Of a DNA stretch of 64,000 bases, positions 33,168 to 61,716 are shown one piece after another. A program made the position numbers and the translations under genes. The DNA comes from Candidatus Kapaibacterium sp. GTDB lineage: Bacteria > Bacteroidota > Ignavibacteria > Kapaibacteriales > UBA2268. Numbering within the stretch: the first letter of the stretch is position 1; each line of letters opens with the position of its first letter. The stretch covers positions 512,001 to 576,000 of the forward strand of contig OY762428.1 of NCBI GenBank assembly GCA_963665665.1. The letters are read 5' to 3'. A model generated the notes under the pieces. The model searched no databases, was not told where the DNA came from, and saw only the letters and a list, made by a program, of their open reading frames with translations.

Positions 33168-33660
33168 ATTCTTTCCTTGCATATAGTCCCTGTATTACCA
33201 TAAGTAATTTACAAAATTCAGAGAATATAAAGCAATTTATATACCAAAATATAATTCAATAAATACCTGTAGTACCTACAATCGCTATAAGCAATTAAGC
33301 AAAAATTTATGGAGAAACACCGAATCAACACTATGAAGAATTACTATTGTAACCTTTTCTTTAGCAAAGTGTAGTTTATAAAAATGAAAATTTTATCGAT
33401 TCAGGAGATAAATCACGTACTAATTCATTATGGAAATAATATTGTTGCTTTCTGATTGCAGGAATCATACAAGCCCAAAACGGGATTTTTTTTATTAATA
33501 CTTTACAAATACAATTAATGATATAATTTTTCACACAAAAAAAATCACTCAAAATAAGCCCGGGCATTTCTTACCTACAATTTACCCAAAACCAAATACC
33601 CCCTCCCGGGCTTAAATATTTCAATCATTGATTTTGATAATCCCCCCCTCAACGCTTCCC

Positions 33661-33774
33661 CCTCATTACGAACTTGTACTTGGTAATGCAGTTTTCTTTT
33701 GAATCTGAGCTTCTCTATTTCAAAGTAGTACTTTGCAGGAAATATTTCTTCCCAAGCGGGGGCTTGGGAAGGAG
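33661..33774. repeat. REP-like hairpin cassette (TTCCCAAG...CTTGGGAA / TTACCAAG...CTTGGTAA family)
   Basis: Reverse complement aligns along its length with 44851-44964. Confidence 0.7.
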
Positions 33775-33780
33775 GGAAAG

Positions 33781-34089
33781 ATTTTCTGCTATTTTGCATG
33801 GATTCTTCGATCGCTTCGCTCCGTCAGAATGACGGATGGGAATGTCCCCCGCTGGCGGGGGTGTCCGAAGGACGGGGGTGGATTTCCGGAAAATTCCCCT
33901 CGTTGAGGGGTGGCGAGCGCAGCGAGTCGGGGTGGATTCTTTTTCCGATTGAAGTTATTATAGTTGGCAGAAGTAGAATGTCATTCTGAGCGCCAGCGAA
34001 GAATCCATTCTTCATACATTATCTGCAAACAAAGATGGATTCTTCGGTCGCAAGCTCCGGAAGCCTGCCCCGACGTGTCGGGGAATGAC
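33781..34089. repeat. Cluster of REP-like hairpins (GTCATTCTGA...GAAGAATCC, CCCCTCGTTGAGGGG and CCCGACGTGTCGGG motifs)
   Basis: Segments are near-exact reverse complements of 61405-61494 and 61598-61651. Confidence 0.75.
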
Positions 34090-34289
34090 AACATAATACC
34101 TCCTTCTCCCGCCCTATCCCCCCGTTTTTCCACCCCAATTAACCAAGCACCGGACTTAATTCCCCATCCTGTGGTATCAATGAATCGAATAATTTCCTTA
34201 ATTCAATGCTGTTTTTAATCAAACCCCTGATGTTGGGGCTAATCGCTTTGTTGTCGGAGCTTTAAACTGTCTTGGCCGGAGTTATTGAA

Positions 34290-34607
34290 CTACTGTTTGG
34301 CCTTATTGTAGTGAAATTTGGCCTCATTGAACACTTGGTTGATCTTACTGAACACTTGGTTGATCTTACTGAACACTTGGTTGACCTTACTGAACACTTG
34401 GTTGACCTTACTGAACACTTGGTTGACCTTACTGAACACTTGGTTGGCCTTATTGAACACTTGGTTGACCTTATTGAACACTTGGTTGGCTTTACTAAAC
34501 ACTTGGTTGACTTTACTGAACACTTGGTTGGCTTTACTGAACACTTGGTTGATCTTACTGAACACTTGGTTGGCTTTACTGAACACTTGGTTGATCTTAC
34601 TGAACAT
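34290..34607 (-). CDS. Putative 105-aa heptad-repeat protein MFS-(K[VIA]NQVF[SN])13-EAKFHYNKAKQ
   Basis: GGAGG-8nt-ATG; start and stop positions conserved in the second copy; conservative heptad changes between copies. Confidence 0.45.
   Translation of the reverse strand: MFSKINQVFSKANQVFSKINQVFSKANQVFSKVNQVFSKANQVFNKVNQVFNKANQVFSKVNQVFSKVNQVFSKVNQVFSKINQVFSKINQVFNEAKFHYNKAKQ
34326..34598 (-). repeat. 21-nt tandem array A, 13 units (AAGGTCAACCAAGTGTTCAGT consensus on the minus strand)
   Basis: Counted directly; variation confined to a few positions. Confidence 0.95.
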
Positions 34608-34614
34608 GTTCTTT

Positions 34615-34971
34615 GCCTCCGACCAAGAGTTCAATGCCTTCAAACAAGGCAGCAATGACTTCGACCAAGGGGTCAATGACTTCAACCAAGGCATCATTAT
34701 CTTCAACCAAGGCATCAATAACTTCGACCAAGGTATCAATGACTCCGACCAAGGCATCAATGACTTCGAACAAGGCAGCAATGACTCCGACCAAGGCAGC
34801 AATAACTCCGACCAAGGCAGCAATGGCTCCGACCAAGGCAGCAATAACTCCGACCAAGGCAGCAATAACTCCGACCAAGGCAGCAATGACTCCGACCAAG
34901 GCGGCAATAACTCCGACCAAGGCGGCAATGACTCCGACCAAGGCATCAATAGATTCGACCAAGGCGTCAAT
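34615..34971 (+). repeat. 21-nt tandem array B, 17 units (GACTCCGACCAAGGCAGCAAT consensus); 2 further units at about 35119-35160
   Basis: Counted directly; related to array A but on the opposite strand. Confidence 0.9.
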
Positions 34972-34980
34972 AGATTCGAA

Positions 34981-35119
34981 CATTGGTGAAATGCCGCTGC
35001 CCCTTCCTACCTCCCCCCGGCCCCCTCCTTCGGAAGGAGGGGGAGTTAATCTTATGATATTTAACTTCTTATCCCCTCCTAATGTAGGAGGGGATTATAG
35101 GGGTGGTTTTCTTGCTTTG
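34981..35119. repeat. REPIN-like double hairpin (CCCCCTCCTTCGGAAGGAGGGGG...CCCCTCCT..AGGAGGGG)
   Basis: Near-identical reverse complement at 60522-60660. Confidence 0.8.
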
Positions 35120-35333
35120 ACTCCGACCAGGGCAGCAATAACTCCGACCAAAGCAGCATTATTTTTTAAACATTGGGAATATGTCGGGGAATGCGGGATT
35201 GAAGTATATTATAATTCGGACGGAGGAAAAATGATCATAACAATTCCGGGTAAAGGCACAGCCCTGCCTGAATAGTGTAATTATTACATATATTAAACCC
35301 GGAAAATAAAATCTGTTTGAAATTGTTGAGTGA

Positions 35334-60521: not shown

Positions 60522-60660
60522 CAAAGAAAGAAAACCACCCCTGTATTCCCCTCCTCCCCGAGGAGGGGATAAGAAGTTAAATATCATAGAATTAACTCCC
60601 CCTCCTTTCGAAGGAGGGGGCCGGAGTGAGGTAGGAAGAGGCGGAAGCAAAGCACCAAAG
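60522..60660. repeat. REPIN-like double hairpin
   Basis: Reverse complement of 34981-35119. Confidence 0.8.
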
Positions 60661-60732
60661 TTTTAACCTATTGCCGCCTTATTCTTCTTCAAAGCCCGCC
60701 CCTTCGGGGAGGGTTTGGGAGGGGTCGATGCC

Positions 60733-60963
60733 ATTGCAGTAATGTTTTGCTTTATTGACGCCTTGGTTGAAGTCATTGATGCCTTGTTCGGAGTCATTGC
60801 CGCCTTGTTTGAAGATAATGAACTCTTGTTTGAAGCTATTGCACCGATGTTTGAAGCTATTGCACCGATGTTTGAAGATAATGAACTCTTGGTCGACACT
60901 ATTGCAGCAATGTTTTGCTTTATTGCTGCCTTGTTTGAAGGCATTGAACTCTTGGTCGGAGGC
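60733..60963 (-). repeat. Degenerate 21-nt array B of copy 2 (11 units)
   Basis: Heptads ASDQEFN/AFKQGSN/KAKHCCN/.../DFNQGVN/KAKHYCN on the minus strand. Confidence 0.8.
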
Positions 60964-60970
60964 AAAGAAC

Positions 60971-61204
60971 ATGTTCAATAAGGCCAAACAAGCGTGGGAT
61001 AATGTCAAACAAGCGTGGGATGAAGTCAAACAAGCGTGGGATGAAGTCAAACAAGCGTGGGATGAAACCAAACAAGCGTGGGATGAAACCAAACAAGCGT
61101 GGGATGAAGTCAAACAAGCGTGGGATGAAGTCAAACAAGCGTGGGATGAAGTCAAACAAGCGTGGGATGAAGCCAAATTTCACTACAATAAGGCCAAACA
61201 GTAG
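60971..61204 (+). CDS. Putative 77-aa heptad-repeat protein MFN-(x[VTA]KQAWD)9-EAKFHYNKAKQ
   Basis: GGAGG-8nt-ATG; termini match those of 34290-34607. Confidence 0.45.
   Translation: MFNKAKQAWDNVKQAWDEVKQAWDEVKQAWDETKQAWDETKQAWDEVKQAWDEVKQAWDEVKQAWDEAKFHYNKAKQ
60980..61168 (+). repeat. 21-nt tandem array A of copy 2, 9 units (GAAGTCAAACAAGCGTGGGAT)
   Basis: Counted directly. Confidence 0.95.
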
Positions 61205-61404
61205 TTCAATACCTCCGGCCAAGGCAGTTTAAAGCCCTGCTAACAAAGCAATTAGCCCAAACATCAGTATTCTGATTCAAAACAGCATTGAATTAAGGAA
61301 ATTATCCGGTTCATTGAAACCACCGGATGGGGAATTAAGGCCGGCGGCCTGTTCATTTGGGTGGAAGAACGGATAAACTGAGCAAAAGAATGAGGTGTTA
61401 TGTT

Positions 61405-61675
61405 GTCATTCTGACGGAGCGAAGCGACGGAAGAATCCATGCAAAATAGCAGAAAATTTATGAAGAATGGATCCTTCGCTTCGCTCAGGATGACATCCCG
61501 GCTCTGCCCTCGTCATATTCAATAGCCACGTGCTTTAGCTCGTGGATAAGGGAGGCTAAAAAAAGAAACCACCCCAGCCTGTCCCGACGTGTCGGGAACT
61601 CGCTGCGCTCGCCACCCCTCAACGAGGGGAATTTTCCGGAAATCCACCCCCGCCCTTTCCCGACTCGTCGGCACC
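61405..61675. repeat. Cluster of REP-like hairpins
   Basis: GTCATTCTGA...TCAGGATGAC, CCACGTGCTTTAGCTCGTGG, CCCGACGTGTCGGG, CCCCTCAACGAGGGG. Confidence 0.75.
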
Positions 61676-61716
61676 AGCGGAAGTTGGAATTTGATCAATA
61701 AGGCAGGTAGAAAACG

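Follow-up and report, generated by a model that had tools for sequence, protein, structure and literature searches.

The closest described systems to the element reported here are the BOX elements of Streptococcus pneumoniae and the mycobacterial interspersed repetitive units (MIRUs). In the parts of the BOX literature that deal with their layout (PMC3049150; PMC3184786), BOX elements have end modules and a variable tandem module, with open reading frames (ORFs) on both strands whose translation their describers doubt. Regarding MIRUs, the section of PMC3184786 devoted to them gives about 40-50 dispersed loci of tandem units, with small ORFs that overlap the ORFs of a neighbouring polycistron. 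Here, we describe an element found twice in a 64,000-nucleotide stretch of the genome of Candidatus Kapaibacterium sp. (assembly GCA_963665665.1, contig OY762428.1, positions 512,001 to 576,000), hereafter the window, in whose own numbering positions are given unless stated otherwise. Two arrays of 21-bp units of opposite polarity meet in it at a 10-bp palindrome. We read it as a lineage-specific, non-autonomous repeat of about 1 kb which, if translated, would have its two ORFs running in the same direction along the minus strand; to this reading we give a probability of roughly one half.

By layout, and not by homology, the element would work like BOX elements and MIRUs, and it is not a member of either group. 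As with BOX elements (boxA-(boxB)n-boxC), it is a dispersed intergenic composite of varying length in which end modules stand round a variable-number tandem module, and its ORFs are open on both strands, their translation being unproven. Indeed, the genome holds many dispersed, mostly intergenic copies with conserved end modules and a variable tandem core. It differs from them by its two arrays of opposite polarity, its dyad centre, its 21-nt unit corresponding to one heptad, its occurrence in one genome only among the 254 of its order and its size of about 1 kb, compared with the 67-637 bp stated for BOX elements in parts of PMC3049150 and PMC3184786. Unlike in MIRUs, which have no opposed arrays, the overlap is internal to the element (ORF-B with ORF-A) and the flanking genes are not overlapped. 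Repetitive extragenic palindromic (REP) sequences, bacterial interspersed mosaic elements (BIMEs) and miniature inverted-repeat transposable elements (MITEs) share with it a high copy number, hairpin modules (its U module and an adjacent GTCATTC..GAATGAC) and a preference for 3' intergenic sites, whereas the element is much larger and built on tandem arrays. MITEs are typically under about 600 bp; the element measures about 1 kb from its U to its D module, and more in the copies called S-type below. A literature search for the combination of 21-bp tandem repeat, heptad and intergenic location gave nothing relevant.

Two opposed arrays about a palindrome

The locus is a single copy of a modular interspersed repeat of about 1 kb, in the order U hairpins, B array, junction, A array and D module. 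Its features are given below with those of copy 2, which lies in inverted orientation.

34984..35125, minus strand: U module, two G+C-rich hairpins (CCCCTCCT..AGGAGGGG; CCCCCTCCTTCCGAAGGAGGGGG) flanking an AT-rich stretch, upstream of array B; one of the two is marked as terminator-like for the plus strand
34597..34983, minus strand: ORF-B, 128 aa, MFESIDALV.., with IDALVGV / IAALVGV heptads and the end IELLVGGKEHVQ (GGKEHVQ, then stop); covers array B
34601..34636, minus strand: junction block, ATTGAACTCTTG[G/T]TCGGAGGCAAAGAACATGTTCA, with the final ORF-B codons, GGAGG at 34620..34616, an 8-nt spacer, the ORF-A ATG at 34607..34605 and the palindrome
34599..34597, minus strand: ORF-B stop, 6 nt after the ORF-A ATG
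34290..34607, minus strand: ORF-A, 105 aa, MFSKINQVFSKANQVF...NEAKFHYNKAKQ, then stop (MFSKINQVF...); covers array A
34100..34289, minus strand: D module, conserved non-repeat trailer behind ORF-A, extending about 235 nt beyond its stop
34606..34989, plus strand: ORF of the first-pass annotation, MFFASDQEF..., 127 aa; open, coding unsupported
60541..60662, plus strand: U module of copy 2 (genome 572541-572662; BLAST)
60715..60981, plus strand: ORF-B of copy 2, 88 aa, with the end ...IELLVGGKEHVQ, then stop
60971..61204, plus strand: ORF-A of copy 2, 77 aa, MFNKAKQAWDNVKQAWDEV...KFHYNKAKQ, then stop; palindrome at 60967-60976
61169..61372, plus strand: D module of copy 2 (genome 573169-573372), 86.8% identical to that of copy 1

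The palindrome, GAACATGTTC, lies at 34602-34611 in copy 1. About it stand array A (21-bp units, 34328-34606, 13.3 copies, 92% matches) and array B (21-bp units, 34617-34979, about 16 copies, 83% matches). It occurs 31 times in the 5.46-Mb genome, compared with 6.3 expected from base composition, and 26 of these occurrences have the same junction context. In these 26 copies, the centre of the palindrome is the exact dyad axis of the opposed arrays: over 145 nt per arm, the palindrome itself being excluded, the complementarity of equidistant bases is 56.9% in register, 55.5% and 57.3% when shifted by -21 and +21, and 15-36% for every other shift. At the level of units, A matches the reverse complement of B with a mean best score of 11.8/21 (range 8-16) in a constant register, compared with 8.8/21 in direct orientation and 9.7 +/- 1.2 for shuffled units. 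The dyad is retained in nine copies devoid of the palindrome, with a complementarity of 0.49-0.69. The first-pass annotation had proposed that repeat polarity flips at the palindrome in both copies, that units read outward match at about 13/21 (measured here at about 12/21) and that the element is a large degenerate inverted repeat with the palindrome as its axis, all of which the unit and dyad tests bear out.

An inverted repeat about the palindrome fits an origin by inverted duplication, through fold-back or template switching; regarding a fusion of repeat-capped ends, which had also been suggested, nothing was found either way. We propose that the two arrays would stem from an old inverted duplication of a single array in heptad phase, with the palindrome as dyad centre, and that the palindrome would be a scar left by this inversion which also serves as start region for ORF-A, rather than as a double start for divergent ORFs.

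Copies, subtypes and siting

With a query of 1101 nt, the genome gives 106 matches, about 30 of them full length at 69-83% identity, and BLAST searches with the single modules give 53 (D), 38 (junction) and 107 (U) matches. Copy counts below refer to the 53 D-anchored copies, whose D modules are 82-92% identical, B arrays and U modules elsewhere being outside this set; U modules are often in tandem or beside other items, such as DUF559 ORFs. Arrays have 3-28 units between the U and D modules and near-identical copies differ in unit number (e.g., 7 vs 8, 16 vs 12), from which we infer gain and loss of units by slippage or unequal exchange. The element has spread to about 53 sites. Whether the ORFs are translated or not, these differences make the loci candidate markers for strain typing.

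Two subtypes can be told apart. In 39 of the 53 copies the arrays abut (J-type), and the 14 others (S-type) have, in place of the junction, a B-to-A spacer of about 480 nt (e.g., L026 590-1090), which is extremely AT-rich, conserved at 90% or more, and gave no Rfam match and no long ORF. Among J-type copies, 26 have the palindromic junction GGAGGCAAAGAACATGTTCA, nine have the junction GATAATGAG[T/C]AACCTCA[A/G]TAA, where only the minus-sense ATG (that of the strand running from B to A) is kept, and four have other junctions with neither ATG. To the question raised earlier of whether the palindrome and its pair of in-frame ATGs are invariant, the answer is no: both are present in 26 of the 39 abutting copies, and the remaining 13 lack the palindrome and one or both ATGs.

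Judging from sequence searches, the element hardly extends beyond this genome. Among the 254 genomes of the order (its own, G000, included), it turned up complete nowhere else, only fragments being found, and a search of 30 relatives found the D module in none. One genome, G142, carries a related 21-bp array, ATGTTCAATAAGATGAAGAAA (MFNKMKK), in an AT-rich intergenic region (L032 1440-1765), 71% identical to array A over 139 nt, and nine others gave matches of 25-43 nt, mostly bits of U hairpins. The pattern of a B-like array matched 476 times in G000, three times in G158 and once in G136, the last match, with two mismatches, being probably due to chance. In G158, which belongs to another genus, two adjacent 21-bp arrays occupy a convergent intergenic region (L043 1438-1807) between two ORFs, one of 279 aa that resembles a glutamate racemase and one of 323 aa with a tail that resembles a type IX secretion system (T9SS) sorting signal; the minus strand has a 78-aa ORF, MVLAIDDLV...LVGAIDD...FHQLYKVTVRKLKVTI. 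Counted by hand, LVGAIDD differs from the LVGVIDA heptad by two synonymous and two non-synonymous changes in the minus-strand B frame, compared with four non-synonymous changes in the plus-strand frame proposed earlier. The arrays of G158 and G142 are a hint that such arrays may predate the expansion in this genome. Scans for D motifs in collections of genome contigs and of metagenome contigs gave no match. In protein searches, ORF-B found two proteins only, both from the contig of its own genome, and ORF-A, searched in a protein atlas, reached a best score of 0.86 with unnamed clusters. No longer forms were found in the protein search, and an exact look-up of ten ORFs found none of them in the protein collection, TTG-started ORFs having possibly been queried with L as first residue.

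Regarding their siting, all 53 copies lie between long ORFs, mostly in 3' intergenic position, the upstream gene being co-directional in 39, a context in line with our reading. The element stands between convergent genes in 26 of the 53 copies and between divergent genes in four, and the nearest flanking ORFs of at least 180 codons are mostly about 130-1900 nt away, the few that are closer being possibly array-derived. No recurrent neighbouring ORF was found within 5 kb of the 53 copies. Convergent siting, avoidance of divergent sites and the lack of a recurrent neighbour suit an explanation that competes with ours, in which the element would be a non-coding repeat of the BOX, BIME or MITE kind. 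Its arrays would act as DNA or RNA, for example as a long, imperfect fold-back hairpin in 3' untranslated regions or as phased binding sites two helical turns apart, and its ORFs would be a by-product of the 21-nt unit. We regard this as a possibility to be taken seriously, if short of probable.

Coding signs on the two strands

As to which strand might be read, single-step differences between distinct units were scored as synonymous or non-synonymous in each frame, with expectations weighted for transitions and transversions. One-step changes are non-independent and all p-values are therefore nominal, which counts against our reading. As the unit is 21 nt long, four of the six frames are open in both arrays; openness is hence uninformative, and the point counts in favour of a non-coding element. 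In array B, the minus-strand LVGVIDA frame has 52 synonymous changes out of 122 (0.43 vs 0.27 expected, nominal p 1.6e-4) and is the sole B frame with an excess; the frame that joins both arrays into one long ORF has a deficit (0.08 vs 0.26). The codon usage of ORF-B is gene-like, with a log-likelihood ratio (LLR) of 0.25 compared with 0.195 +/- 0.073 for genes. An unrelated 21-bp family of the same genome, which gave no clear synonymous excess in any frame with the same test, serves as control. A frame-specific excess in B arrays and, as seen below, in S-type A arrays, absent from the control family, argues against a non-coding element.

A further line of evidence comes from the junction. Across all 26 palindrome-bearing copies, the 36-nt block 34601-34636 has a single variable column, whereas in the D modules of the same copies 100 of 230 columns are invariant (57% variable) and stretches holding no more than one variable column reach 10 nt at most. 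This conservation is one-sided: it extends 25 nt onto the B side, upstream of the minus-strand ATG, and ends at the A-side edge of the palindrome, a pattern that suits a start region better than the symmetric site expected of a non-coding element. GGAGG-N8-ATG and the ORF-B stop 6 nt past the ATG are identical in the 26 copies, and Shine-Dalgarno (SD) motifs are in use genome-wide, with a GGAG peak near -10. The ORF-A ATG overlaps the end of ORF-B by 11 nt (ATGTTCAGTAA), an arrangement found again in copy 2 on the plus strand. With translationally coupled overlapping gene pairs, this layout shares the common strand, an SD motif inside the upstream ORF and a start/stop overlap. The overlap is of 11 nt, compared with the 4 or 1 nt named as common in parts of PMC10666635 and PMC12548453, and coupling is here putative.

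We propose that, in the main subfamily, the near-invariant junction would provide GGAGG, then the 8 spacer nucleotides and the ORF-A ATG, and that this layout would serve the coupled translation of ORF-B, with hydrophobic and acidic heptads of the LVGVIDA type, and of ORF-A, with polar amphipathic heptads of the NQVFSKV type. The dyad, the family of copies, the substitution bias specific to one frame of B and the one-sided conservation of the junction are shown, whereas transcription, translation, coupling and any function of the peptides are what we infer from the sequence. If the ORFs are translated, the genome would encode about 50 hidden paralogous pairs of heptad micro-proteins devoid of known relatives, and would document a definite way for genes to arise from the antisense side of inverted repeats.

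The first-pass annotation had instead seen two back-to-back ORFs opening at the palindrome, from the minus-strand ATG at 34607 and the plus-strand ATG at 34606, possibly a sense/antisense or toxin/antitoxin-like pair. Their lengths are correct (105 and 127 aa in copy 1; 77 and 97 aa in copy 2, the last computed by hand between the ATG at 60972 and the end of the ORF, 60679), 26 copies have the two ATGs with their open frames, and the two peptides are mirror-related (x-Q-x-h-[SN]-x-x). The minus-strand member, MFSKINQVF..., is the ORF-A of the reading favoured here. The plus-strand member fares differently: its frame through array B is depleted in synonymous changes (9/122, 0.07, vs 0.22; range 0.07-0.12 vs 0.21-0.22), and the minus-strand frame surpasses it in codon usage. 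The plus-strand ATG has no SD motif and a variable upstream side, whereas the minus-strand ATG lies in the near-invariant block; it is missing from all 13 palindrome-less copies among the 39 abutting ones, nine of which keep the minus-strand ATG. Starts 1 nt apart also leave no room for promoters. Neither the test of D for periodicity nor the survey of neighbours revealed a toxin-like or otherwise conserved ORF behind the arrays. Type III toxin-antitoxin systems (ToxIN-like) resemble the element by a tandem-repeat array that is potentially transcribed. Their arrays have few copies of about 35 nt, whereas the units are here of 21 nt in 6-33 copies, and such a system is excluded because no toxin gene lies downstream. 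A divergent pair of genes appears highly improbable.

Regarding ORF-A, the A-frame ATG is kept in 35 of the 39 abutting copies, and in S-type A arrays the same-strand EQASNEA frame has 49 synonymous changes out of 130 (0.18 expected, nominal p 4e-8). In 12 of the 53 copies, the A frame overruns its usual stop position (34290-34292) by 17 codons, into apparent decayed heptads at the start of D. Counting stops per frame does not discriminate among the three mostly open A frames, which have 12, 1 and 5 stops. A prediction of the complex between ORF-B and ORF-A scored 0.01 and has no bearing on binding, for or against.

The coding evidence is statistical and mixed, and a series of observations weighs against two co-directional genes. 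For ORF-A, the J-type arrays, to which that of the locus belongs, show no synonymous excess (17/82, 0.21, vs 0.18). The mean log relative synonymous codon usage (RSCU) of ORF-A is -0.36, compared with 0.089 +/- 0.063 for genes and -0.029 +/- 0.056 for their antisense strands, and the opposite strand of array A, at 0.006, does better than ORF-A itself. S-type copies mostly lack a canonical A-frame start, and neither the D module nor the non-repeat end of ORF-A has 3-base codon periodicity. The sole relative of ORF-A outside this genome among 5.8 billion protein clusters, P0001, is weak, with SKANQVF / SKANHVF heptads in another context, and a collection scan for P0001 gave no related locus. In Pfam, ORF-A matches 95 families at E <= 1, including DUF948 (33.4 bits, cut-off 37.2) and DUF5798 (30.8 bits, cut-off 27, split over four short stretches), and the opposite-strand ORF matches ApoB100_C with 40.7 bits; such promiscuous matches, to many families and on both strands, point to a composition effect. 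For ORF-B, the 5' ends differ across copies, many copies have in-frame TAA units right after U (54 stops in 4559 B-frame codons) and GGAGG also represents plain codons of 'GG' in a common B unit. Public gene calls for the genome include two B-frame proteins only and no A-frame protein. The siting described above, typical by analogy of non-autonomous intergenic repeats, is to be added to this list.

The better codon usage on the opposite strand of array A raises another possibility, that of two convergent paralogous genes: ORF-B on the minus strand and a plus-strand ORF at 34272..34658 (MAGVIELLFG..LVDLTEH heptads), driven from D, lying tail-to-tail at the palindrome. Its TEHLVDL frame is the codon-aligned mirror of the LVGVIDA frame of B, it has one stop in 13.9 kb of arrays and a near-normal codon usage (mean log RSCU 0.006, LLR 0.17, vs -0.36 and -0.18 for NQVFSKV), and in S-type copies it forms a full ORF that opens with TTG and has FIACLFR heptads similar to the MFCFIAA of B. 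Synonymous changes are however not in excess in this frame, either in J-type (0.17 vs 0.22) or in S-type arrays (0.25 vs 0.22), the changes in J-type arrays tend to spare its third codon positions (14/82, the lowest share), which also speaks for the minus-strand reading, the TTG start has no SD motif and the conservation of the junction is on the wrong side. Moreover, since array A descends with divergence from an inverted copy of B, codons resembling those of B are passed on to its opposite strand, so that gene-like codons are expected there without any plus-strand translation. The argument from codon usage alone was set aside for this reason, and we consider convergent genes improbable.

Returning to co-directional minus-strand ORFs, a bolder version of this reading can be formulated. 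ORF-A would have arisen as a gene on what was the antisense side of the ORF-B heptad array: in an inverted copy, that strand would have come into sense orientation directly downstream of B, and both an SD motif and an ATG would then have been gained at the dyad centre. The two heptad peptides, hydropathically complementary, would be co-translated from one mRNA and act as a pair, and the cassette would have multiplied to about 50 loci. If true, this would be a natural instance of a gene arising de novo through inverted duplication and of a peptide pair of sense/antisense derivation. Taken as a whole, this scenario strikes us as unlikely.

Non-coding signals and other repeats of the genome

Folding of the element bears on its possible function as RNA. 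The minus-sense RNA folds at -228.9 kcal/mol, compared with -192 +/- 9 for shuffles (z -3.96), and the native arms reach -130.8 compared with -105.0 when the A arm is reversed, two results in line with a non-coding hairpin. Chimeras made of arms from different copies reach -124.5 (p 0.019), the complementarity of the arms is of 57% only and the arms co-vary between copies with a rho of 0.58. Both the co-variation and the small gap between native arms and chimeras are explicable by subfamily structure; they were not retained as evidence of a selected hairpin. As for the D module, it is a conserved trailer devoid of coding signal, as might be expected in a non-coding element; alifold gave -8.5 (238 columns) and -1.2 kcal/mol on the two strands, i.e., no conserved structure, and D was rejected both as structured RNA and, for want of 3-base periodicity, as coding sequence. 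A search of the element in Rfam gave no match, and this, with the modest complementarity of the arms and the lack of structure in D, counts against the non-coding explanation. As a candidate for terminal inverted repeats, a single inverted match of 7 nt, CCACCCC / GGGGTGG, was seen by eye, off the boundaries of the element, whose ends are blurred by adjoining modules.

A further argument for a non-coding element comes from the genome at large, where period 21 accounts for 288 of the 777 rows reported by TRF, many others having periods of 42, 63 or 84. The rows of period 21 sum to 48.9 kb, overlapping rows being unmerged, or about 1% of the genome. The second, unrelated 21-bp family, with 23 loci (e.g., G000:C1 1573700-1574900, L054), has the unit GAACGCTCGGAAAGCACGGGG, often preceded by an array of GCACGAACCAACGCTAAGACG, and is bordered by a conserved AT-rich leader (about 250 nt) and a trailer (about 150 nt) proper to it. 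This family, having no coding signal, indicates that the genome makes 21-bp arrays without evident coding, which counts against translated ORFs in the element as well. With the weak or absent coding signs of ORF-A in J-type copies, the missing starts in S-type copies, the gene callers that pass over nearly all these ORFs and the precedent of BOX elements, whose ORFs, since both strands are open, are considered more likely untranslated in the relevant part of PMC3049150, these points lead us to retain the non-coding, BOX-like explanation as a strong rival. Should it hold, the element would represent a new and unusually large kind of modular bacterial repeat, with a dyad of phased arrays, and a caution that tandem units of 21 nt, by leaving four of six frames open, can produce 'ORF pairs' on both strands.

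Under both explanations, unannotated 21-bp arrays make up about 1% of this genome, and these arrays break short-read assemblies. Indeed, the short-read contigs of a second strain (four DNA runs) end at the edges of the repeat block, at 33773-33840 and 35090, and the read depth inside the block is 50-100x that of the flanks in the four runs. The genome, with its 5.46 Mb, is larger than most of the listed relatives (about 1.6-5 Mb in the family).

The region 33650-35170 of the window, between a gene with a YkuD domain and a TPR (tetratricopeptide repeat) gene, is a mosaic of repeat modules throughout. At 33650-34100 and at 61380-61700, further modules adjoin the element, including a hairpin GTCATTCTGAGCG..GAAGAATCCAT..ATGGATTCTTCG..GAATGAC, with about 100-125 BLAST matches in the genome according to the coverage profile. 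Elsewhere (G000:C1 1352900-1357100, L053), three tandem 133-aa DUF559 ORFs (Pfam E 2.5e-32), each flanked by U-type hairpins, lie beside a copy of the element.

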